Source of the DNA: Alphaproteobacteria bacterium
Lineage (GTDB): Bacteria; Pseudomonadota; Alphaproteobacteria; UBA828
Length of the DNA stretch: 64,000 nucleotides
Assembly (NCBI GenBank): GCA_965237415.1
Contig: CBDEFM010000002.1
Span: 1,664,001 to 1,728,000, forward strand
Direction of reading: 5' to 3'
Of this stretch, positions 4,792 through 42,172 are shown one piece after another. A program made the position numbers and the translations under genes. The notes below the pieces were generated by a model, which was not told the DNA's origin, did not search any database, and was given only the letters and a program-made list of their open reading frames with translations. Position 1 is the stretch's first letter. Every line of letters starts with the position of its first letter.

Positions 4792-4866
4792 GCGCCCGTA
4801 GCTCAGTGGTAGAGCATCTGACTTTTAATCAGAGGGTCCCTGGTTCGAACCCAGGCGGGCGTACCA
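4792..4866 (+). tRNA. tRNA-Lys(TTT)
   Basis: GCGCCCG/CGGGCGT acceptor stem, anticodon loop CTTTTAA, GTTCGAA T-loop, encoded CCA. Confidence 0.97.
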
Positions 4867-4914
4867 ACAAATTCAATCATTTCGCGGATTTTCAGGAGAG
4901 TCGCAAAGCGACCA

Positions 4915-4936
4915 TGTCAGCACGGTGTCAGCACGG
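4915..4936 (+). repeat. Tandem direct repeat TGTCAGCACGG x2 downstream of tRNA-Lys (possible integrase arm-type site)
   Basis: Perfect 11-bp duplication about 50 bp after the tRNA 3' end, following an AT-rich AAATTCAATCATTT tract. Confidence 0.5.
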
Positions 4937-5056
4937 CGCGGCCATCCTGCGGAACGGGGATCACGGGCAACACGGCAGCGGATCCTTCCTTACCTAGCCG
5001 CAACCCGAGGTTCGCCGCCCGGGCGCCGCTATGCCAAGCAATTGGAGCGGCGACTA

Positions 5057-5871
5057 GGGCCTGTTCACACTAACGCAGTGCATCGCATATGAGCGCGAAG
5101 AGGATGAACCCGAGGAAGATCACGTCGAGCTTCTCGAATCGAGAGAAGATTCGGCGGAAGCCCTTGAGGCGTCGGAACAGGCGCTCGATTTCGTTGCGCC
5201 GCCTGTACATCTCCCGGTTGTATACCCAGGGGTCGCGCCGGGTCTTGAGCGGCGGAACCACGGGTGTGAAGCCGAGGTCGAGCGCCAGTTGGCGTGTCTC
5301 GTTGCCTTCGTACGCGCGGTCCATGATCAGACAGGGCTGGTGCGGTTGCGCGCCGAGGCGCTGGAGCAGCTTGCGCCCTTCGGGAGCATCGTGGGCCTGT
5401 CCGGGCGACAGCGAGAACGTTATGGCCGTCCGGGCATCCGCGGCAACCATATGAAGCTTGGTGGTCCAGCCGCCTCGGGATCTGCCGATCGACTGCGGTC
5501 CGTTTTTTTTAGCGCCCCAGTCCCGTCGGGATGCACCTTGACGATGGTGCTGTCCAGCGACAGCGCTTCGAGCTTGATGCGCACGATCTGTTCTCGTTGC
5601 AGCTGTTCGAAGACCCGGTCGAGGACGCCGTTCTTCGACCAGCGGTTCATGCGCATGTAAATGGTGTGCCAATTGCCGAAGTGACTGGGCAAGCCGCGCC
5701 ATTTGCAGCCATGCTCCGCCACGTACAGGATGGCGTTGAGCACCTGCAGGTTCGACAGGCTGACGTTGCCGCGTTGCACCGGAAGGTACGGGGCAATGCG
5801 AGCGTATTGGGCTTCCGTGATCTCCATCCGAGAATGATAACACGATTCGCATAATTAGCGTGAACAGGCCC
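5057..5871 (-). mobile_element. IS5 family (IS427-group-like) element with two overlapping ORFs
   Basis: IRs GGGCCTGTTCACACTAA / TTAGCGTGAACAGGCCC, each flanked by TA within CTAG. Confidence 0.9.
5070..5827 (-). CDS. IS5-family transposase (orfA 5420-5827 plus orfB ending at 5070; probable programmed frameshift at the A8 run near 5503-5510)
   Basis: orfA LNAILYVAEHGCKWRGLP...GNWHTIY..DSTIVKVH; orfB IGRSRGGWTTKLH, MDRAYE, YRRRNEIERLFRRLKGFRRI. Confidence 0.88.
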
Positions 5872-6976
5872 TAGACGAGGCCGCGCCGGGTCGATTGCAT
5901 GGCGGCTGTGAACAATAGTATCGGACGTCACCAAGCGCGTGACGTTGCAGGACGGCCCGGACGGTTCGAGTTGATAACCACCAGTCAACCCCGTCGGGAA
6001 CCTCGCGCGTCCCATGAACCGCGCGGAGTGAAGAGCCGGGGCGCCCGACCCTACCTCGATCCAGCCTCCCGCCTCCCCTGCATCTCAGGGGCCTCGCCAG
6101 GTCACCTCAACCGTGGCGGCGTCGCCACCGCTCCTTCTACGCTCAGACCCCACCACCCCGTGCGGGCAGGTCAACCGAGGCGGCAGCGTGGGCTAAACGT
6201 CGTCTCGTTACAGTTACCCGGACAACGCCCACCACTCACATAATGATTTAGACCCCCAAGCGGCCTTCATACCTTACTACATTATCCCACCAAGGAGTTG
6301 TTTTACTGGACGCCAGCCCAGCAGACCTTACCATTCGCCAAACTGAACTAGGGCCACTCTCCCCAATATACATGTCGCAGAGGAGAAAAACCGCCCTATT
6401 TGGGAAAACGACGTGTCGAGAGCCGTATTACTACTATCCCGTTTGGCCGATACTGGCCAGTACTCAGACGACTCAGGTCTGCGTTATTTCGGTACACCAA
6501 CGATGCTCTATACTCAAGAGCTTCCCCTTTTGTTAGTGCAGTACTATAGACCCGATCGAATATCCGTATTTGTCATTACAATATCATAACATGTCCTCCA
6601 TAACTCTCAATGTCTCGCTACTGTCAGTCAGTTACACTTGACCTATCTCACTTTCGTACATACCGTAACTGCGCGTATGGTTGGACATGCTTCTCTCTTT
6701 CGGTGGGTTACAATGCCCCGAGACACCGTGCGTCCTAAGTTACTAAGCTACACATCTGGTGAATTGTCCGACACGGATATGAAAACATATATTGGATTAT
6801 TGTGCCGACACATTCAACCACATTACGCCGAAAACGACAATACCCAATTATCCTGAGATTTTGAAAATAACCAAAGGACGGAGACAGGCAGCCGTAAACA
6901 ATCGAACTCCTCAGGCTTTTCGTGCGAGTCTCAATGTCACTGTTCGCCCGCATGTACTCAGAGAAAACTCCTACAA

Positions 6977-7843
6977 ATGCCTGTTAACGTAAGCGGTCCT
7001 TTGGTAAGCATAATCGTGCCGGTCCACAATACGGCCGCTTCCCTTCACAGGGCACTGAGGTCCGTGCTTAGCCAGACACTGACTGATTATGAACTCATAT
7101 TAGTGGATGATTGCTCTGCAGACGAGAGTATTAGAATGTTAAAGAAGTATGGCGAGCTCGATGAGCGAGTGAGGCTTTTTTCGACCTCCAGGAACAGCGG
7201 CCCTGGGGCAGCGCGTAACGTCGGTCTCAAGAATGCACGTGGACGGTACATCGCGTTTTTGGATGCAGATGATTTTTGGGTGAGCAACAAACTAGAACTG
7301 CAAATTCGATCCTTTGAAGACGATAAAGTAATATTATCTCACACAAGAGTGGTCCTTCTTAACACACGGGGCGATATAGTGGGAATTGTAAACGGCCGGA
7401 AGAAAATGCATTTGTTTGACATGTACGTTGGAAATCGCGTTACCATGAGCAGTGCAATGATTCGGAGAAACGTGGTTGGCGGGCAAGAAATGCCAAGACT
7501 ACGAAACCGTGAGGATTATGCGTATTGGATATCTCTACTGCAGCGTAACGATGGTTATATTACGTGTGTTCCTGAAGTCTTGGTTGGGTATGTCAAAATG
7601 CCAGGGTCAGTATCGTCGAATATTTTGCGGAACGTCGTGGATACTTACCGAATGTACGTCTCAGAAGTGGGCATGAGTCCGGTAAAGGCTGTGATGTTGG
7701 TGGTGGTATTCTCCTGCTTTAAATTTTATAAGGAGGTGAAGGCGAGATTTAATTGGATGCTTTTATCGCAATACGAGAAAATGAATCTAAAGACGTCTAT
7801 TGACCTCTATTGGAATTGGGATAAGCAAGGAGAAAGGCCATAG
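6977..7843 (+). CDS. Glycosyltransferase family 2 (TuaG-like)
   Basis: VSIIVPVHN, ILVDDCSAD, GAARNVGL, IAFLDADDFW, REDYAYW; visibly AT-richer than the surrounding genes. Confidence 0.92.
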   Translation: MPVNVSGPLVSIIVPVHNTAASLHRALRSVLSQTLTDYELILVDDCSADESIRMLKKYGELDERVRLFSTSRNSGPGAARNVGLKNARGRYIAFLDADDFWVSNKLELQIRSFEDDKVILSHTRVVLLNTRGDIVGIVNGRKKMHLFDMYVGNRVTMSSAMIRRNVVGGQEMPRLRNREDYAYWISLLQRNDGYITCVPEVLVGYVKMPGSVSSNILRNVVDTYRMYVSEVGMSPVKAVMLVVVFSCFKFYKEVKARFNWMLLSQYEKMNLKTSIDLYWNWDKQGERP

Positions 7844-7995
7844 CCGAGTGTCTGCGCTGTTCGAAGAAATCTGGACGATGGCGGCCTCAAGGAAGTGTGC
7901 AGAGATAGCGTCTATAGCGGTGGTGTGTATAGAGATGGATATCACCTGACATTGCCGCCCCTGTGTAGCCGGTTTGCGGCCGCAGCGCCCCAACT

Positions 7996-8751
7996 CTATG
8001 CCGCGTTCTTATATTCCTGCAGCACCTCGTCGATCGGCCCGCGAGCCTCGACTCTTCCCGCGTCGAGCAGGACGCCCGTGGTGCAGACGCGCTGGAGAAG
8101 GCCTACATTCTGGGATGCGAGCACCAAAATTCCGGCACACTCTACGAACTCCTCGAGCCGGCGCTTTGCTTTCTCGACGAAGGCGCGGTCGCCCATGCCC
8201 AACCATTCGTCCATCAACAGGATCTCGGGCTCGAAGCAGGTGCAGACGGCAAAGGCGAGCCGCAGCCGCATACCCGCCGAATATGTATGCACCGGCATCG
8301 CCAGATAGTCGCCAAGCTCGGTGAACGCCGCGATCTCGTCCATACGCTCGCGCACCTGCTCCGGCATCAGTCCCAGGAAGAGCCCCCGGGTCATGATGTT
8401 CTCGTAGCCCGTCGCTTCCGAATTGATACCGAGCGACACGCTCAGCAGCGAAGCCGTTCGGCCGTGTCGATAAACGCGACCGTGCGCGGGTTCATAGGCA
8501 CCCGCGAGCACGCGCAGCAGCGTCGTCTTGCCAGCGCCGTTGGGGCCGACAAGACCGACCCGATCACCGTGCTTGAACGCGAGACTCACGTCTTCGAGCG
8601 CACGCACCCACAGCCGTCTGCCGGCGCCGCGCGCGATGCGCCCGCCCGTGCCGTGATGCAGCAATCGATTCTTCAGCGAGCGCGTATTGGTGCTGTAGAC
8701 GGGGAAGTCGACCGTGACCGACTCGAGCCGAAGGCTGACCGCGGCGCTCAT
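7996..8751 (-). CDS. wzt: Polysaccharide export ABC transporter ATP-binding protein (Wzt/RfbB-like)
   Basis: GPNGAGKTT, YSAGMRLRLAF, ILLMDEWLG; start MSAAV overlaps the wzm stop. Confidence 0.9.
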   Translation of the reverse strand: MSAAVSLRLESVTVDFPVYSTNTRSLKNRLLHHGTGGRIARGAGRRLWVRALEDVSLAFKHGDRVGLVGPNGAGKTTLLRVLAGAYEPAHGRVYRHGRTASLLSVSLGINSEATGYENIMTRGLFLGLMPEQVRERMDEIAAFTELGDYLAMPVHTYSAGMRLRLAFAVCTCFEPEILLMDEWLGMGDRAFVEKAKRRLEEFVECAGILVLASQNVGLLQRVCTTGVLLDAGRVEARGPIDEVLQEYKNAA

Positions 8752-12830: not shown

Positions 12831-13646
12831 TCAGGCGAGCGCCGCCAGCACCCGTCGGACGAACACGCCGGTCATGCGCCGGCGATACCATTCGCTCGCG
12901 ACAGCATCGGTCTGGGGCGTAACGGCGCTCTCGGCCGCCTGGGCCGCCGCCGTCACCGCCGCCTCGTCGAGGCTGGAGCCGATCACCGCCTGCTCCGCTT
13001 CGGCGCAGCGGAAGGGGTGCGCGCTCGCCCCGCTGAGCGCGATCCGCGCGTCGCTCACCGTACCGCCATCCTTTTCCACGCAGGCGGCGACCGTGACCAC
13101 CGACGGGGTCGAATAGCGGCGCCGCGCGCACTTCATGTAGGCGGCGGCGCCTGTCGGCGCGTCGATCTCGATCCGGGTCAGCAAGCCTGTGCGGGGCGGC
13201 GTGCCGTCGGACCAGCCGGCGTAGAAGGCTTCGATCGGTTGGGTCTCCTCGCCGTCGGCAGTCGCGAAGACGAGCCGCGCGCCGAGGGCGAGAAGCGCCG
13301 GCGCGAGATCGCCGAAGGGGGCGCGGGCGAACAGGTTGCCGCCGACCGTCGCCATGTTCTGCACCGCCGGGCCGCCGATCTCGCGGGTCGCGGCCTGGAG
13401 TGCGGCAATCGGCACGGCCTCGCGCAGCACGCTCAGCGGGACCGCGGCGCCGACAGACCAGCCGCCGTCGCGGCTCACCACCCGGTCGAGGCCGAGGCGG
13501 TCCACCCCGATCAAGTAGCCCTCGTCCGACGGATAGGTCTCGCGCATCAGGCTGGTGCCGCCGGCGAGCACTGCCGCCGCGGCACCGTGGCGCGCGATCA
13601 GGTCGGCCGCCTCGTCGATCGAGCCGGGCCGAAGAAACTCTGGCAT
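12831..13646 (-). CDS. Xanthine dehydrogenase family FAD-binding subunit
   Basis: LAGGTSL, IGGPAVQNMATVGGNL, ASEWYRRRM; start MPEFLRP at 13646. Confidence 0.9.
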   Translation of the reverse strand: MPEFLRPGSIDEAADLIARHGAAAAVLAGGTSLMRETYPSDEGYLIGVDRLGLDRVVSRDGGWSVGAAVPLSVLREAVPIAALQAATREIGGPAVQNMATVGGNLFARAPFGDLAPALLALGARLVFATADGEETQPIEAFYAGWSDGTPPRTGLLTRIEIDAPTGAAAYMKCARRRYSTPSVVTVAACVEKDGGTVSDARIALSGASAHPFRCAEAEQAVIGSSLDEAAVTAAAQAAESAVTPQTDAVASEWYRRRMTGVFVRRVLAALA

Positions 13647-13777
13647 GGACGCCGTCCTCCGACCGTTGAAATACCGCCCGCGCCCGTCCGGCCCATGTCG
13701 TGCACCGGCGGCGCGCGGCGCGCATCCTAACGCAGCAACGCTCGGATCACACCCGCATATCCGCGCCGGGTAGTGTC

Positions 13778-14659
13778 TCAGTTTGAAATTTCGCGCTTGC
13801 GGTAGGTCGCAGGCCGCTTGGGCTTCGACGCTCGCGCATCGATCAGCCCGACGATCCACTCCATGTCCCTCAGCGTGTCGGACACGCCAGCGGCCATCGC
13901 GGGCGACATGCGCAGGCTCTTATGCATCCGGCAGAAGTTGTAGTGCACGAAGTAGAGCGACAGCATGTGAAGGTGATTCTCCAGCTTCTTGGAGAAGGCA
14001 TTCGTGAGCCGGGTGAAGCGGCGCATCCCCATCCGCATAGTCAGGTTTGACCGTTCGACGTAGGACGTGCTGACGGCCTCAGGATCGGAACTGCCCTCGA
14101 CCCGGCGCCGCTTCGTCCCGATGCATGTGGCGGGGCTGTAACGCTTCTCAGCGCCCGGCGCCTCGCCGTAGAGCTTGATTAGCTGGGCATAGTCCACATC
14201 GCCACCAAAGGCGCCCTCGACGGCTTCCAGATACGCCTTGTGGCCGTCGGTGGTCAGTTGAACGCGGTTTGCCAGCCGGGCGCGCAGGTCGTCCATGAAC
14301 TCGATAGCCGTGGCGCCTGAGCGGTCGCCAACTTCCCACGAGATGATCAGTTTGGAGTCGGCTTCAATCGCCGTCCACGTCCACACGTCGCCGGCGCCCT
14401 TCGGGGCAGCCTTGGCACGCGCGACGTTCTTTTCCTTCGCGTAGCAGAAGGACCAAATCTCATCGCACTGGACGCGGCTGGCAGACACGTCGCGCACGGC
14501 CTCATCGTGATAGGCCGCGCACGCCTCGCCAGCCTCGACCATGAGCTTGGAGACCGTGTTGATTGAAACGTCCATAACACGACTGACCGAGCGCATGGAC
14601 ATGCCCTCGACCAACATGTTGAGGATTTGGACTCGCTTGTCAGTTGGCAGCCGGTTCAT
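13778..14659 (-). CDS. IS1-family DDE transposase (ISMhu11-like)
   Basis: N-terminal HTH, VQCDEIWSF, QLTTDGHKAY, STSYVERSNLTMRMGMRRFTRLTNAFSKK, HYNFCRMH. Confidence 0.9.
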   Translation of the reverse strand: MNRLPTDKRVQILNMLVEGMSMRSVSRVMDVSINTVSKLMVEAGEACAAYHDEAVRDVSASRVQCDEIWSFCYAKEKNVARAKAAPKGAGDVWTWTAIEADSKLIISWEVGDRSGATAIEFMDDLRARLANRVQLTTDGHKAYLEAVEGAFGGDVDYAQLIKLYGEAPGAEKRYSPATCIGTKRRRVEGSSDPEAVSTSYVERSNLTMRMGMRRFTRLTNAFSKKLENHLHMLSLYFVHYNFCRMHKSLRMSPAMAAGVSDTLRDMEWIVGLIDARASKPKRPATYRKREISN

Positions 14660-14665
14660 ACCCCT

Positions 14666-14694
14666 GATATAGGGGCGTATTCACTTGTTGTCAA
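14666..14694 (-). promoter_or_regulatory. Putative promoter directly upstream of the IS1 transposase (near-leaderless)
   Basis: Minus strand TTGACA-17 bp-TATATC followed by AGGGGT ATG. Confidence 0.45.
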
Positions 14695-14894
14695 GCATTA
14701 CTTTCATCTTGGGGCGGGTTAGGAGCCCTTACCGGAGTTAATTCGACATTGCCATTTCCCAATGGATGAATCGCAATGCGCTCATTCCATGGCATCCCTG
14801 TCTTCTCCCGCACAACCCTTGTTTGGCAAACTGGAATATCCTTCACAGAAAATGCAAACTTCAGCTCGATGTTTATGAAATTTTGAAAAACCAT
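14691..14894 (-). CDS. Hypothetical passenger protein (67 aa)
   Basis: ORF tiled 5 bp after the upstream cargo gene, same strand, AT-richer composition. Confidence 0.5.
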   Translation of the reverse strand: MVFQNFINIELKFAFSVKDIPVCQTRVVREKTGMPWNERIAIHPLGNGNVELTPVRAPNPPQDESNA

Positions 14895-14899
14895 GGGAC

Positions 14900-15172
14900 T
14901 TACTCACCCACATAATAGAAATACAGCTCTCCATCTGCACGCTTAACCGCCACGAACCACCATTCCATGAAATGAAAGGGATACGGCTCATTGGCATGCA
15001 TGAGGTGCGATGAAATCTGTAGCGACTCGCCATTCCCAAGAAAGGGCGATCTTACGGGTGGCACTGCAACGCCTTGATAAGCGCCAACTTCAGAAACCGC
15101 CCAGCCCTGTTGTTGAGACATTGTGGCAAGAACGCCTCGTGTGGTCACAGCGTCTTGCTCCTTCATGAGCAT
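14900..15172 (-). CDS. Hypothetical passenger protein (90 aa)
   Basis: Starts 2 bp after the upstream stop, with GGAGG RBS; aromatic-rich C-terminus. Confidence 0.6.
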   Translation of the reverse strand: MLMKEQDAVTTRGVLATMSQQQGWAVSEVGAYQGVAVPPVRSPFLGNGESLQISSHLMHANEPYPFHFMEWWFVAVKRADGELYFYYVGE

Positions 15173-15174
15173 GG

Positions 15175-15483
15175 CTACTGAACCTCCCCGTCGATGTTGG
15201 ACTCCGGCCCGCCACTGACAGACACTTGCACTTGGTGCCTCACGGCAACTTCTGGATCACCGTCCGCTGTAAATGCTGGATTCCCGTCCTTATCGAGGAC
15301 GCGAAATATCTTGTGAACGACGACTTTGATCCGCACATTATCACCGCTCGCAAGACTATACTCATTCCAGCGCTCTTTATCGGCATCAAACGACTCTTCG
15401 CGGACGTTCCGGGTCTGCCCATCAATTTCCATTTCCCGGATATTATAATTTCGGCTCTTAGGCACGGCTATGCTCCAGGCCAT
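15175..15483 (-). CDS. Hypothetical passenger protein (about 100 aa)
   Basis: Protein-like sequence (ERWNEYSLASGDNVRIKVVVHKIFRV...GDPEVAV) overlapping the upstream gene end. Confidence 0.65.
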   Translation of the reverse strand: MAWSIAVPKSRNYNIREMEIDGQTRNVREESFDADKERWNEYSLASGDNVRIKVVVHKIFRVLDKDGNPAFTADGDPEVAVRHQVQVSVSGGPESNIDGEVQ

Positions 15484-15692
15484 CTGGTAGTTGCGGCCTT
15501 GCGCGCGATCGCGCTGCGCTCATCCGGCGTCAGGGACGCCTGGCGCGCGCGTGCGCCAGCATGGCCGGCTCGCACCTTGTTCGGTTGCTTGTATTGTGTG
15601 TCCTCAATTTCGCCAGTTGCTATCCTGGCGACGTGTACGGCGCACCCAACCACGTCAGCCGGGCGCTTCTCTCCTCGTGGCCCCTTGGGCAC
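15468..15692 (-). CDS. Small basic IS-associated protein (PKGPRGEKRPADV...LTPDERSAIARKAA..RW type)
   Basis: Pattern I recall from small proteins annotated as RNA-binding/histone-like beside IS1/IS1595 transposases; not verified by search. Confidence 0.7.
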   Translation of the reverse strand: MPKGPRGEKRPADVVGCAVHVARIATGEIEDTQYKQPNKVRAGHAGARARQASLTPDERSAIARKAATTRWPGA

Positions 15693-15756
15693 GGCTAGCG
15701 CCGTTCCACGTCGGGCACTCGCTCCACTCTGTTCGCCATGCTCATCTCCGCTCCCC

Positions 15757-15841
15757 CTCTAGGTTCCCTAGGTTCCCCAGGTTCCCCAGGTTCCCCAGGT
15801 TCCCCAGGTTCCCCAGGTTCCCCAGGTTCCCCAGGTTCCCC
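15757..15841. repeat. 9-bp tandem repeat: 7 perfect CCCCAGGTT units plus 2 variant units
   Basis: Directly visible: CTCTAGGTT CCCTAGGTT (CCCCAGGTT)7 CCCC. Confidence 0.97.
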
Positions 15842-16113
15842 GTGTCCCACATGGTATCACAGGATATCCCATGTCAAGCCCAGTCTGGGCCAGCGGACCC
15901 CCAGTGCCCGTTCAAGCATACCGTTTCCCGGCAACCTTATGCCCGTCTCAGATTCTCGCCAGCGGTAAAGCTGGCAAGCGGACGGCACTGGAGCATGACC
16001 GTCAAGGGGCGACCGATTTCAAACTGAGTCACTACCCCGCGCCGACATAGCTGGCGTGCCGCTCTGACCTTGCCGCGCCGCCGGCAGGGCGGCTATCGTC
16101 CGCCGCGCAATCG

Positions 16114-17466
16114 ATGGCGAGGCGCGCTATGGCAACGAGGCCCGACGCGGTCGGCCGGAATCTCGACCTGGAGAGCGCGGTCGACGAGGTGACGGCGCGC
16201 TATGCGGCGGCCAATCCCGGCAGCCGGGCGCAGTACGAGCGCGCACGCGAGAGTATGCCGGGCGGCAACACGCGCACCGGCATGTTCTACCCGCCCTTCC
16301 CGCTCGCGATCGAGAAGGCGGCCGGCGCGACGCTGACCGACGTCGACGACCACACCTACACCGATTTCGTCGGCGACTTCTCTGCCGGTCTCTACGGCCA
16401 TTCTCACCCGGTGATCCGCGAGGCGGTGCAGGCGACGCTGGATTCCGGGATGGCCTATGGCTCGACGAGCCCCTACGAGGCGCGGCTTGCGGCGCTCGTC
16501 TGCGCGCGCTTCCCCTCTATCGAGCAGGTGCGATTCACCACCTCCGGCACCGAGGGCAACATGCTGGCGCTCGTCACCGCCCGTGCGGTGACCGGCAAGG
16601 ACTCGATCATGGTGTTCGAGGGCGCCTATCACGGCGGCACCATCTACTTCGGCCGCGAGGCCGCGCCCATCGTCGTGCCCTTCCCTTTCGTGATCGCCCC
16701 TTACAACGACGCGGAAGAGGCGCGGCGCCTGATCAGGGAGAACGCACACCGCCTCGCCGCGGTTCTGGTCGAGCCGCTCCAGGGCGCATCCGGCGCGATT
16801 CCGGCCTCGGTTGAATTTCTCGCAGCGTTGCGCGAGGCCTGCAGCGCCCACGACGTACTGCTGATCTTCGACGAGGTGATGACCTCGCGGGTCGCGCCGG
16901 ACGGGCGCCAGGGGCAACTCGGCATCGTCCCCGACCTGACCACGCTCGGCAAGTATATCGGCGGCGGCTTCTCCTGCGGTGCCCTCGGCGGCCCCGCGGA
17001 GATCATGAAGTGTTTCGACCCCTCCAGACCCGACTCCTTCGTTCACCACGGCACCTTCAACAACAACGTGTTCATGTTGATCGCCGGCGCCGCGGGCCTG
17101 GAGAAAATCTTCACACCGCCGGTGCAGATTGCGCTGAATGAGGCCGGCGATGCGCTGCGCGACGCCCTCAATGGGCTTGCCGCCCGCCACGGCGCCTCGT
17201 TCCAGGTGACCGGGCTCGGCTCGATCATGACGATGCATTTGCAGCGTGAGCCGATCCGCTCGATCCGCGACATTGCGCCGCGAGATTCACGCCTGCGCCA
17301 GCTCCTGCATCTCGACCTGATCGACAAGGGCTTCTTCACTGCCCGGCGCGGCTACATGGCGCCCTCGCTCGCCATTGCGGGGACGGACTGCGACGGCCTG
17401 ATCGAGGCGGTCGACGAATTCCTGACCCACCACGGCCATCTTCTGGACGCCGCGCCGGACGGATGA
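16114..17466 (+). CDS. Class III aminotransferase, glutamate-1-semialdehyde aminomutase-like
   Basis: MPGGNTR, VRFTTSGTEG, LIFDEVMT, PDLTTLGKYIGGG, HGTFNNN. Confidence 0.9.
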   Translation: MARRAMATRPDAVGRNLDLESAVDEVTARYAAANPGSRAQYERARESMPGGNTRTGMFYPPFPLAIEKAAGATLTDVDDHTYTDFVGDFSAGLYGHSHPVIREAVQATLDSGMAYGSTSPYEARLAALVCARFPSIEQVRFTTSGTEGNMLALVTARAVTGKDSIMVFEGAYHGGTIYFGREAAPIVVPFPFVIAPYNDAEEARRLIRENAHRLAAVLVEPLQGASGAIPASVEFLAALREACSAHDVLLIFDEVMTSRVAPDGRQGQLGIVPDLTTLGKYIGGGFSCGALGGPAEIMKCFDPSRPDSFVHHGTFNNNVFMLIAGAAGLEKIFTPPVQIALNEAGDALRDALNGLAARHGASFQVTGLGSIMTMHLQREPIRSIRDIAPRDSRLRQLLHLDLIDKGFFTARRGYMAPSLAIAGTDCDGLIEAVDEFLTHHGHLLDAAPDG

Positions 17467-39566: not shown

Positions 39567-40275
39567 CGCTCGTCTCCCCCTCCACCGTCCCTGCCGTTTT
39601 CCCTAGCTTGGCAGCCGGAGGTGGCGGGTCAAGCCGCGCACGCGTCTTCGGGAGCGTTCACCTACCTTGCGTCGCCGTGGTCATCTCCGCCACCATCGGC
39701 CTCGCGCCACGGGCTCCACCACCGGCCTCGCGTCGCCGTCATTGTTGAGGGCGTTGGGGTGTGGCCGCGGCATCGTCCCATGCGGACGCACAGGCATCGG
39801 CAGAAGGAAGGCTCGAGATGGTCCGTTACGGAAAACGCGTCTGGATTTTGTATCAAGTGTCAATGGCGATGGGATCGTAGCAGGGTATGGAGTCGGCTAG
39901 CGATAACGCCTTAGGCGTGGTGAGTGGGCGAGGGATTTTTTGACCGCACTTTCTCGCGGCTCACCCATTGCCTCAGCGTCTGATCGCGGAGAAACGGTCG
40001 CTGCTACAAAACGCTCGCCGGTAATGTAATCGCGATCACACAGCTCCGTATTCCGCAATTGCCTCGACATGGCGTTGAACGAATCGCCTAATGATGCTGG
40101 TCCACTGACCAGATGAAGCATTAGAAATTCCTATACGGACAGGCGCTCGGGATATATCAAAGTCGATGTCATTCCCGATATTGAGTATGCGCCACTTGAT
40201 ATGCCACAATATATGTCTCAGCAGGACCACACGGAAACATTTTACATTTGGATCACAAAAGTATACCACACTGAT

Positions 40276-41196
40276 ATGAGCAGCCGAGGGCCATATCGGA
40301 TACCGCCGACGAGCGTCTTGGTCGCCTTCGAGAGTGCCGCTCGGCACGGCAACTTCTCTCGAGCCGCTCGTGAGCTGCGCACGTCGCAATCCGCCATTAG
40401 CCGCCACATTGCCAGCCTCGAGAGGCAACTTTCGACACGACTGTTCGAACGGTCCCGGACCGGGGTGAGCCTGACCGACGCTGGAAACCGCTACCGTGAT
40501 GCCGTCGCCATCGGGCTCGGTGCCATCCATGCGGGTGCCGCGGAGGTCGCCGAACTATCGACTGAAGAACAGGTGGAGGTGGTGATCGCTTGCTCGGACG
40601 AAGCATCGCACCTCTTCTTGATGCCGCGATACGGTGCGCTCCAGAAAGCGCTCGGCGACCGGGTCCAGATACGCGTGCTGACCTATCAACACGACATACA
40701 GTATTTGCCCCCGCTTCCGCGTGCCGATGTCATCCTGAGCTGGGACTCTGAGCAGGCCGCCTCCGACGACCGCGTGGTTGTTATCGAGGAAGAGGTGAGG
40801 CCGCTTTGCTCGCCAGGCTATGCCGCCTTGCATGCCGACGTGTTGAACGGACCCGTGACAGGCTGGGGCGGGCTGACATTTCTCGGTGTCTCGCGGCCCA
40901 ATGAAGGCTGGTCGTCGTGGGAGGATTGGTTCGATGTTGTCGGACATCCGGTCCCCGCCCCCCGGCAATCGAGCTACGACAGCTATACATATGTGCTGGA
41001 ATCGGCCGCCGCAGGACACGGTATTGCCATAGGCTGGCGTCACTTCATAGAGCGCTATCTTGAGTCCGGGGCGCTGGTCGCTCTCACCGACGGGTTTCTG
41101 AAGACCGAGAATTGCTTATACGCCGTTGTCACCGAGAAAGGGCGACAAAGGTCCATCGCACGCAAATGCCTAACCATCTTCGAACGATTTGTGTAG
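40276..41196 (+). CDS. LysR-family transcriptional regulator (GcvA-like)
   Basis: FESAARHGNFSRAARELRTSQSAISRHIASLE HTH. Confidence 0.92.
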   Translation: MSSRGPYRIPPTSVLVAFESAARHGNFSRAARELRTSQSAISRHIASLERQLSTRLFERSRTGVSLTDAGNRYRDAVAIGLGAIHAGAAEVAELSTEEQVEVVIACSDEASHLFLMPRYGALQKALGDRVQIRVLTYQHDIQYLPPLPRADVILSWDSEQAASDDRVVVIEEEVRPLCSPGYAALHADVLNGPVTGWGGLTFLGVSRPNEGWSSWEDWFDVVGHPVPAPRQSSYDSYTYVLESAAAGHGIAIGWRHFIERYLESGALVALTDGFLKTENCLYAVVTEKGRQRSIARKCLTIFERFV

Positions 41197-42172
41197 CGCA
41201 CCGGATATTGCGCAGGCAACGGCCCGTCGATCATCTCAAGCTGGAGCGATCTTCTAGGACTACAAGAGAGTATTTGTGACGTTCAATATTCCATTCACGG
41301 CGACGACGCGTGGCTTCAGACGCCAAGCAATCGAAAATTCAAGCGCAAATAGGCGACGTTGATGTTCGGCACGCGTATGGATGTCGAGCTTTTGGGTAAA
41401 CCGGTTATCATGAACAAGCAGACGCGGTGGACAATGGACCGCATCTTCTGAAGAGTGTCAGAAAAGTCGCGCAACCCCTTTGGTGACGTGCGATTCCCAG
41501 AGGAGGTTGGAGGCAAGGTAACGGTGCAGCCGGCAATCAGCATCGCCGCTACTGCAGAGACGCTCATTTTCGAAGCCGTGTTGCGTTTGGGCTAGAATGC
41601 TCCGGCGAACGGAGGGCAATGAGGACGGGAAGAAATTCAGCCGGTCCATATATGAGCTGCGTTGGAGGTTGAGGAACGACTCGCTCGCCCAGGACCTGAT
41701 GAAGGTCGCCCCCAGCATTGCGCCGGATGCGATTAGCGCCGCCGGTGAAAGGCTCTTAATGCCGAACTGGCACTCAATGGCAAAACGCGATGGAATGTCC
41801 CAGTGGCACTTAACCAGTCGGTGCACGTCGGAGAAAAAGGGACAACGCTGCCCGCAGGACCGGCAGGAGGGGCGCCGCGGCAATCAAGAGGGCCGGTCTC
41901 GGAATCGCCGAACAAAGCCGACCGGAAGGCATTCTCGCGAACGGTATGCGCCACCATCGGCGTGCCGAGCGGATGCGAGCTCTTGCGGATATTCCAGAAC
42001 GCGTACCCGTGTATGGGGCTGACCGCTGCACGCGCGTCGTCCGCGACGAAGCGAATTGCTTGCCGCGCACCCGACGCGATCGCCGGGCAGGACAGTCATC
42101 GTCAAAATGCCGGAGCCGAGGACGCCCGCTCCGGTCAGCGCAGGGCGGACGTGCCTCCCCGTAGCGCTCCGC

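Follow-up and report, generated by a model that had tools for sequence, protein, structure and literature searches.

A mobile element was found in a window of 64,000 nucleotides (the whole stretch of DNA analysed, positions 1,664,001 to 1,728,000 of contig CBDEFM010000002.1) from an alphaproteobacterium of the GTDB lineage UBA828. One region of this window can be assigned with high confidence to an intact transporter insertion sequence (tIS) of the IS1 family: three genes that do not belong to its backbone lie inside a pair of terminal inverted repeats, and a target-site duplication lies outside both repeats. The tIS is an established category in the insertion sequence (IS) literature (PMC9330008). 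The element is one intact and probably recently inserted tIS of the type in which the transposase is encoded by a single open reading frame (ORF). Taken as a whole, we favour the reading that it combines a conserved backbone with a variable slot, and that the orphan cargo in this slot forms a toxin-antitoxin (TA)-like or defence module; we consider this moderately probable.

The element spans positions 13769-16036 (2,268 bp), with all of its genes on the minus strand. Its 21-bp ends match at 20 of 21 positions, GGTAGTGACTCAGTTTGAAAT being the reverse complement of GGTAGTGTCTCAGTTTGAAAT with one mismatch, and the repeat gave exactly two matches in the window against none in 100 shuffles. An identical 8-bp sequence, CCGCGCCG, was read directly outside both ends. 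The original prediction of a 2268-bp element bounded by 21-bp inverted repeats with one mismatch and a perfect 8-bp target-site duplication was therefore confirmed by direct reading and by the shuffles. Elements of the IS1 family have short terminal inverted repeats of the GGnnnTG type and target-site duplications of 8-9 bp. The ends here read GGTAGTG... and fit IS1 ends of this type at a length of 21 bp, and the 8-bp duplication, which recurs in three of the four plasmid-borne relatives described below, fits the IS1 range.

Since the 8-bp duplication flanks the whole element, the region can be treated as one unit. The alternative, that a plain IS lies beside unrelated small genes and a stray repeat, draws only on the size of the element, which is unusual for the IS1 type; however, it has to contend with the identical duplication outside both repeats, with three relatives that show the same architecture with duplications of their own, and with the small gene, which always sits beside the far repeat. 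We regard this alternative as scarcely credible, and take the tIS as a single transposing unit in what follows. Its insertion point is the spacer between two divergent genes, which would measure about 190 bp without the element (Table 1).

The transposase occupies only 882 bp of the element, as predicted. Its IS1-type assignment was also supported, with the profiles giving a mixed picture: the Pfam family DDE_Tnp_IS1 matched at 28.3 bits, above the gathering cut-off of 24.1 (with only residues 198-237 covered), and the best NCBIfam match, below its cut-off, was IS1. It is 61-72% identical to proteins on four plasmids that carry the RefSeq label 'IS1 family transposase', and D66, D138 and E202 are invariant in an alignment of the five transposases. 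A profile made from this alignment found nothing below E = 0.5 among the PDB sequences. As one 293-aa ORF, helix-turn-helix (HTH) included, encodes the whole transposase, and the classical IS1 insA/insB' pair with its programmed -1 frameshift is not present, the element is not a classical IS1 and belongs at most to the single-ORF groups. Membership of IS1595 was rejected, the score for NF033547 being 23.9 bits against a cut-off of 75, with no Pfam IS1595 match and no N-terminal cysteine pairs.

Table 1. Features of the element and its flanks, with positions in the window
Feature	Position	Strand	Basis or remark
CO-dehydrogenase-type flavoprotein subunit gene	12831-13649	-	flanking gene
Target-site duplication copy 1, CCGCGCCG	13761..13768	.	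read directly; identical to 16037-16044
Terminal inverted repeat, transposase end (conventional IRR), GGTAGTGTCTCAGTTTGAAAT	13769..13789	+	holds transposase stop codon
Transposase, 293 aa (882 bp), N-terminal HTH and DDE domain (D66, D138, E202)	13778..14659	-	Pfam, NCBIfam, homologues
Candidate transposase promoter, CTTGAC-N17-CTATAT	14667..14695	-	exact consensus match
Cargo gene 3, 67 aa, pI 6.5	14691..14894	-	two homologues; conserved 40-residue core
Cargo gene 2, 90 aa, pI 5.2	14900..15172	-	variable disordered N-half; conserved C-terminal beta domain, residues ~40-90
Cargo gene 1, 102 aa as longest ORF, pI 4.95, all beta	15175..15483	-	96-aa start at GTG 15465
Conserved small basic protein, 74 aa, pI 10.6	15468..15692	-	backbone gene; homologues in relatives
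Leader region	15695..15850	-	51-aa open frame mostly of 9-bp repeat, or 16-codon mini-ORF from ATG at 15742
Nine tandem copies of the 9-bp unit GGGGAACCT (coding strand)	15761..15841	-	TRF score 155, 98% matches
Weak candidate promoter of the small-gene and cargo operon, CTTGAC-N16-TACCAT	15851..15878	-	tentative, read from sequence
Terminal inverted repeat far from transposase (conventional IRL), GGTAGTGACTCAGTTTGAAAT	16016..16036	-	sequence read and repeat search
Target-site duplication copy 2, CCGCGCCG	16037..16044	.	read directly
Class-III aminotransferase gene	16114-17466	+	flanking gene

A tblastn search with the transposase against 72,556 plasmids returned 32 records, four of which cover 96-100% of the query at the identities given above. 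The elements that they define lie on plasmids of Hoeflea sp. IMCC20628 (L001; 4,224 bp), Acidiphilium multivorum (L002; 2,634 bp), Methylocapsa polymorpha (L003, plasmid pRX1; 3,125 bp) and Mesorhizobium loti (L004; 3,370 bp). Two truncated remnants, in Mesorhizobium sp. B1-1-8 (L006) and in Bradyrhizobium sp. Ash2021 (L007, interrupted by an IS3), complete a picture of five whole elements and two remnants. A megablast search of the plasmids with the whole element gave no match. Judged by sequence comparison, the window element and its four relatives are a family of IS1-type tIS. Comparing what lies between the inverted repeats of such homologues, as had been proposed, showed the same backbone in all four relatives with differing genes in between. 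This is also the layout that the original prediction had put forward, namely a small basic first gene, a cargo slot and a transposase with its own promoter.

The 21-bp repeat, in which about 15 bases are fixed, is found as an inverted pair in each of the four relatives with 0-3 mismatches in 21. The five transposases are 58-75% identical in pairwise comparison, yet the repeats differ at just 0-3 of the 21 positions. The stop codon of the transposase lies inside the repeat, 9 nt from its outer end, in the window, L002 and L003. Perfect 8-bp duplications flank L001, L002 and L004, and none was found for L003; four of the five complete elements have thus duplicated 8 bp around the whole cargo-bearing unit, which is the signature of whole-unit transposition. 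Beyond the ends, part of the small gene and the transposase region, the window element has no DNA in common with the relatives; L003 and L004 additionally share a stretch of related cargo DNA. All five complete members carry cargo, with no empty form among them.

The surroundings of two of these relatives may be recorded here. At 4880-5721 of L002, a gene annotated as a RES-domain toxin (4883-5371, minus strand) ends inside the element repeat and is followed by an Xre-type antitoxin gene, so that insertion seems to have taken place in or next to the end of a RES-Xre toxin-antitoxin locus. The neighbours of L003 (455-8888) include a Shedu nuclease gene, an IS5 and a UvrD-helicase/AAA-ATPase pair, a setting that resembles a defence island.

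The heading of the original prediction had the window element carry an operon of four small unknown genes. The 74-aa gene proved instead to be conserved backbone in all of the relatives, which leaves three cargo genes. Homologues of the 74-aa protein, 42-54% identical to it, occupy the same position in the four complete relatives, as the first conserved gene inside the transposase-distal repeat; the gene is present in 5/5 complete elements and in both remnants, where it adjoins the same repeat. Pairwise identities of the 74-aa proteins track those of the transposases, the window, L001 and L002 making up one group and L003 and L004 the other. It is on account of this co-conserved position and of these identities that we assign the gene to the backbone and not to the cargo. 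No match to the protein was found in Pfam, NCBIfam or (by sequence profile, with nothing below E = 0.5) the PDB, and its homologues are labelled 'histone H1' or 'RNA-binding protein' in RefSeq, the latter in L006. Our guess is that the small basic protein is a DNA-binding regulator or accessory factor.

The leader region differs throughout the family, each of the four relatives having a different, non-homologous small ORF there. The stop of the leader ORF overlaps the start of the small gene as TGATG or TAATG in three of the four relatives, and the overlap in L001 is 17 nt. The leader ORFs of L001 (1649-1837) and L003 (1806-2063) each contain two cysteine pairs (zinc-ribbon-like) and are not detectably homologous to one another, and those of L002 and L004 differ from them again. 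In the window, the leader frame ends 2 nt ahead of the small basic gene, and the 9-bp tandem repeats translate in frame as (GEP)n within the 51-aa open frame. The repeat region is predicted to fold as a long hairpin (z = -3.3), and the repeat was not found in any of the four relatives. If its copy number changed, the small gene and the cargo could be expressed at another level. We considered the 51-aa (GEP)n frame as a real gene and dropped this idea; the frame starts directly after the candidate -10 box.

In agreement with the original prediction, the transposase appears to have a promoter of its own, the candidate being a perfect CTTGAC-N17-CTATAT just before its ATG. This is the sole exact match in the 64-kb window, with none in 100 shuffles, and it corresponds to the sigma-70 consensus given for Sinorhizobium meliloti in an earlier report (PMC2873474). 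Because the -10 box ends only 7 nt ahead of the ATG, the transposase mRNA is probably leaderless or nearly so. All five elements have a -35-like motif 30-38 nt ahead of the transposase ATG, which reads (A)TGCTTGAC in L003 and L004, TGCTTGAC in the window, TGGTTGAC in L001 and TGCTTGCC in L002. The 67-aa ORF takes its stop codon from the -35 hexamer of this candidate promoter (14691-14695 region), so that backbone sequence closes the last cargo gene.

Three variable regions can be distinguished in the family: the leader (A), the main slot (B; 0.8-1.9 kb), which runs from the small gene to the transposase promoter, and the stretch from the transposase to the near repeat (C; 902 bp in L001 and 280 bp in L004). 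With PADLOC profiles, slot B of L001 was found to hold RmrT (1e-97) and RmrA (3e-191), which together make up RosmerTA, a published toxin-antitoxin-type phage defence. Slot B of L003 and of L004 holds a PD-Lambda-2_B-like Xre-peptidase (4e-40 and 1e-49, respectively) beside a protein of 159-164 aa without a match; PD-lambda-2 is presented as a toxin-antitoxin-like abortive-infection system (PMC9519451). The slot of L002 contains an SDH-type Clp-fold serine protease and a 68-aa ORF. A recognised defence-type protein is thus present in the slot of 3/4 relatives, which lends indirect support to the original guess of a defence or TA-like cargo. Region C of L001 (4931-5769) additionally carries a gene pair (78 aa and 201 aa), the 201-aa protein having a weak PD-T4-9_A match (8e-6), and this element may carry two toxin-antitoxin-type modules.

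The same comparison bears on whether the three genes in the slot of the window element might be accessory or regulatory factors of transposition. They share the orientation of the backbone genes, and the transposase follows directly after them; however, they are absent from all four relatives that have the same ends and transposase, they differ from the backbone in composition, and a search for domains revealed none that binds DNA. A role of this kind is very unlikely, and we continue to treat the three genes as cargo of a variable slot.

The arrangement of the four co-oriented small ORFs, predicted to overlap or to lie 2-5 bp apart, was borne out: the 74- and 102-aa ORFs overlap by 16 nt, and the following gaps are 2 nt, 5 nt and, before the transposase, 31 nt. 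So was the AT-richness of the three distal ORFs, whose GC content is 0.44-0.53 with a GC content at third codon positions (GC3) of 0.43-0.59, as compared with 0.62 and 0.81 for the transposase; GC3 is 0.67 for the 74-aa gene and 0.87-0.90 for the flanking host genes. As the GC3 of the cargo lies far below that of backbone and host, a foreign origin is indicated. Half of the ten homologues of the 102-aa protein are 96 aa long and start at the position of its codon 7, and GGAG stands 7 nt upstream of the GTG of the 96-aa form. From these homologue lengths and the upstream GGAG, the true start of cargo gene 1 is probably at 15465 (96 aa), 2 nt after the stop of the 74-aa gene. GGAG-like ribosome-binding sites precede both this GTG and the ATG of the 90-aa gene.

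The word TAGCC(G/A)TG occurs at three successive gene borders (15690-15697, 15463-15470 and 15170-15177), and may be a trace of the joining of cargo to backbone, or chance. Some 17 nt surrounding the start of the 74-aa gene recur almost unchanged at that of the 96-aa form.

Homologues were sought among 5.8 billion proteins and were found for all three of the cargo ORFs that the original prediction had singled out. The 102-aa protein has 10 homologues (60-90% identity, 32 invariant columns), the 90-aa protein belongs to a set of 14 proteins including itself (51-100% identity), and the 67-aa protein has two homologues, 81% and 72% identical by BLASTP. These homologues come from a small number of metagenomic contigs. 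Their lengths are preserved although identity is 51-90%, and W, G, P, F and Y occupy invariant columns; it is this conservation which argues that the cargo is real coding sequence. A search of 1.84 billion proteins with the 90-aa family profile reached 66 representative clusters at E<=1e-3, nine of them at E<=1e-10; nearly all are of 70-125 aa and share a C-terminal domain of about 50 residues. A Pfam scan of 59 of these 66 clusters gave none at the cut-off and a single sub-threshold TrfA match; of the seven clusters outside the scan, two were already in the alignment and five were shorter than 60 aa.

Five of the ten clusters of the 102-aa family match 90-aa clusters in the size of their longest contig (1539, 10351, 169365, 282258 and 985 bp), from which we conclude that these two genes co-occur; of the proposal that the three cargo genes recur together elsewhere, this part stood. 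Three features hint indirectly that some homologues belong to elements of this type. Two homologues of the 102-aa protein (P0001 and P0003) have an N-terminal extension, 'MVWGI..', that fits a frame read through the overlapping end of a small basic gene (...RWxGx-stop), P0025, a homologue of the 67-aa protein, ends in '..NA-stop', the same ending that the promoter motif supplies in the window, and several homologue contigs are IS-sized (1.5-2.5 kb).

Set against this conservation is the notion that the cargo ORFs are hitch-hiking or decaying DNA without present function. The families are indeed very rare. Searches of 72,556 plasmid and 50,697 phage records by tblastn with the 102-, 90- and 67-aa proteins gave no credible match; the 102-aa protein did align within a 637-aa endonuclease of a Bacillus phage (E = 0.04), which we take as chance. 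In representative genomes of 185,579 species, the 90-aa alignment gave six pattern matches, two of them confirmed by tblastn and belonging to one locus (L005), which we rejected as spurious, since only nine residues matched and no other element gene was present there. The structure models are only moderately confident, and the 67-aa ORF, with its mere two homologues, takes its stop from a backbone promoter motif. However, reading frames and lengths are kept at 51-90% identity in 10 and 13 other clusters (for the 102- and 90-aa proteins), in which a large share of structural positions never varies, starts and stops are tightly spaced with ribosome-binding sites present, and the C-terminal domain of the 90-aa protein extends to the 66 clusters noted above. 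Inert cargo is accordingly a quite improbable explanation, and a functional module remains the reading that we prefer.

Structure prediction with AF2 gave a five-stranded model for the 102-aa protein (pLDDT 67) and, for the 90-aa protein, a model of mean pLDDT 66 in which residues 1-39 are disordered and residues 41-90 score 77-90 per ten-residue block. In the ESM Atlas, the best scores for the 102- and 90-aa proteins were 0.88 and 0.86, below the level of a lead, and a comparison of the two family profiles indicated that they are unrelated. Prediction of a complex between the two proteins gave scores of 0.01 and 0.00, which weigh neither way. The sole match of the cargo proteins in Pfam or NCBIfam was to soxD (E = 0.058), far below the cut-off. 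By these models and alignments, the three cargo proteins are small, acidic or neutral and beta-rich, belong to no known family and are kept intact in diverged copies elsewhere.

What such proteins might do is suggested chiefly by the company they keep. That the three cargo genes form a toxin-antitoxin-like, abortive-infection or addiction module is proposed because the slot of the sister elements holds such modules, because the genes combine a foreign composition with tight coupling and conservation, and because cargo of this type explains why an IS should keep 0.8 kb of extra DNA. On our analysis this narrower identification is possible and falls somewhat short of probable. The cargo might instead confer another benefit, for example anti-defence, with small acidic proteins blocking restriction or another immune system to the advantage of the plasmids or phages on which the element travels. 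Each of the proteins is small, with an acidic or neutral pI, they are orphans encoded in a tight small-gene operon on a mobile element, and neither a toxin-like nor a regulator domain was detected, all of which would suit such a function. Yet no similarity was found to a known anti-defence family or viral fold, the only match in a phage or plasmid record is the chance-level one at E = 0.04, and the slot cargo of the relatives is of defence and not of anti-defence type. We therefore think a benefit of this other kind unlikely, and retain the TA-like or defence module as the preferred reading of the cargo.

A number of observations weigh against that reading as a whole. Turning first to the vehicle, the transposase scored 73.2 bits against its best NCBIfam family, IS1 (NF033558), below the cut-off of 100, and a generic scan for promoters and terminators of the E. 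coli type found no sites. The neighbours of the element are metabolic genes and not a defence island. The analogy with the slot rests on only four relatives, and the slot of one of them, L002, holds nothing that PADLOC recognises. As for the cargo itself, no protein is basic or resembles a known toxin, and there is no HTH antitoxin or regulator, unlike in the cargo of the relatives. None of the cargo proteins has a PADLOC (E<=1), Pfam, NCBIfam or PHROG family, and profiles of the 102- and 90-aa proteins found nothing below E = 0.5 among the PDB sequences. The hope that HHpred or Foldseek would identify the proteins was disappointed, in that Foldseek searches with the 102- and 90-aa models against the PDB, and with the 102-aa model against BFVD, gave no match at E<=0.001. 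Co-occurrence could be traced for two of the genes and not for the third: the homologues of the 67-aa protein lie on contigs of 981 and 13128 bp that are shared with neither of the other families. Small ORFs are often not called, which bears on this linkage.

The evidence can be arranged into a possible mechanism. The backbone consists of two 21-bp ends, a promoter-proximal leader, the 74-aa gene and an HTH-DDE transposase that is probably expressed from its own promoter. The transposase would cut at both ends, insert the whole 2.27-kb unit and duplicate 8 bp of the target, and in the present case the insertion landed in the ~190-bp spacer between divergent metabolic genes. Cargo and small basic gene would be transcribed together from a promoter just inside the far end. 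The content of the slot differs from relative to relative, and in the window copy it comprises three translationally coupled, AT-richer genes. Finally, the cargo module would earn the element its keep, either through phage protection of the host or by making loss of the element costly, in the way inferred for the relatives' cargo. In its boldest form, which we put forward as doubtful, this IS1-type lineage would be a dedicated shuttle for immune modules of the TA type, and the window copy would carry a new three-protein system (96, 90 and 67 aa, all of them small beta proteins of no known fold) that kills or arrests the cell upon phage infection or element loss, with the small basic protein tying expression of the cargo to control of the element.

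It is useful to compare the element with systems described before. It is like the single-ORF IS1 elements in having a DDE transposase with an IS1-type signature, repeats of about 21 bp starting GGT...TG, an 8-bp duplication and an N-terminal HTH; we take these elements to be the 'ISMhu11' subgroup of ISfinder, a name that did not occur in the literature searched. It departs from the IS1 family in its lack of an insA/insB' pair and of a frameshift, in its extra conserved small basic gene, in the 0.8-1.9 kb slots and in the sub-cut-off NCBIfam IS1 score. RosmerTA and PD-Lambda-2, which occupy the same slot in L001 and in L003 and L004, respectively, are small, tightly packed operons as well; the window cargo has no detectable likeness to them in sequence or fold and no Xre-peptidase, and membership of either system is not supported. 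Integron gene cassettes offer a further parallel, as a variable slot beside conserved mobile-element genes with some cargo promoter-proximal. An integron-like cassette mechanism was nevertheless rejected: there is no integrase gene, the slot borders have neither an attC-like sequence nor any other in common, and cargo is found in both orientations.

The element resembles the tIS of the literature (PMC9330008) in being of IS size, with one transposase and with passenger genes that move as a unit between the repeats, and differs in that its cargo consists of orphan small proteins, or in the relatives of defence TA modules, instead of resistance or metabolic genes. Tn7-like transposons (PMC8649781) are likewise a transposon family with variable, defence-rich cargo; their machinery and scale are different, the present elements having one transposase, a size of 2-4 kb and no target-selection proteins.

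Searches on transporter IS in connection with toxin-antitoxin or anti-phage systems found no paper on IS1-type elements with defence cargo. Within the literature searched, both the architecture of the family (an extra basic gene, three variable regions and a leaderless-type transposase promoter) and its defence-type cargo together with the orphan three-gene module appear to be new. The element may already be registered in ISfinder. Large mobile elements are known to carry defence systems, and IS1-type transposases are likewise familiar. If the favoured reading is true, an IS family with one transposase that moves defence modules as units of 2-4 kb would be among the smallest known vehicles of this kind. 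A rule for discovery would follow, in that anything lying between small basic gene and transposase promoter would be a candidate system; the three orphan genes are the first test of this rule. Should the cargo be inert, the element is still a clean example of a tIS. The family also adds a conserved gene to an IS1-type backbone, and its transposase mRNA is apparently leaderless.

Two other regions of the window depart from their surroundings. A second GC dip (0.57-0.58) at 40001-42000 holds a LysR-type regulator ORF (40201-41196) and ORFs without Pfam matches. At 4792-8000, a tRNA-Lys gene (4792-4866) is followed by an IS4/IS5-type DDE_Tnp_1 transposase ORF (5070-5852, minus strand), and the adjoining DNA at 6001-8000 has a GC content of 0.47-0.52 and holds a family-2 glycosyltransferase (6977-7843); this stretch looks like a small acquired islet.

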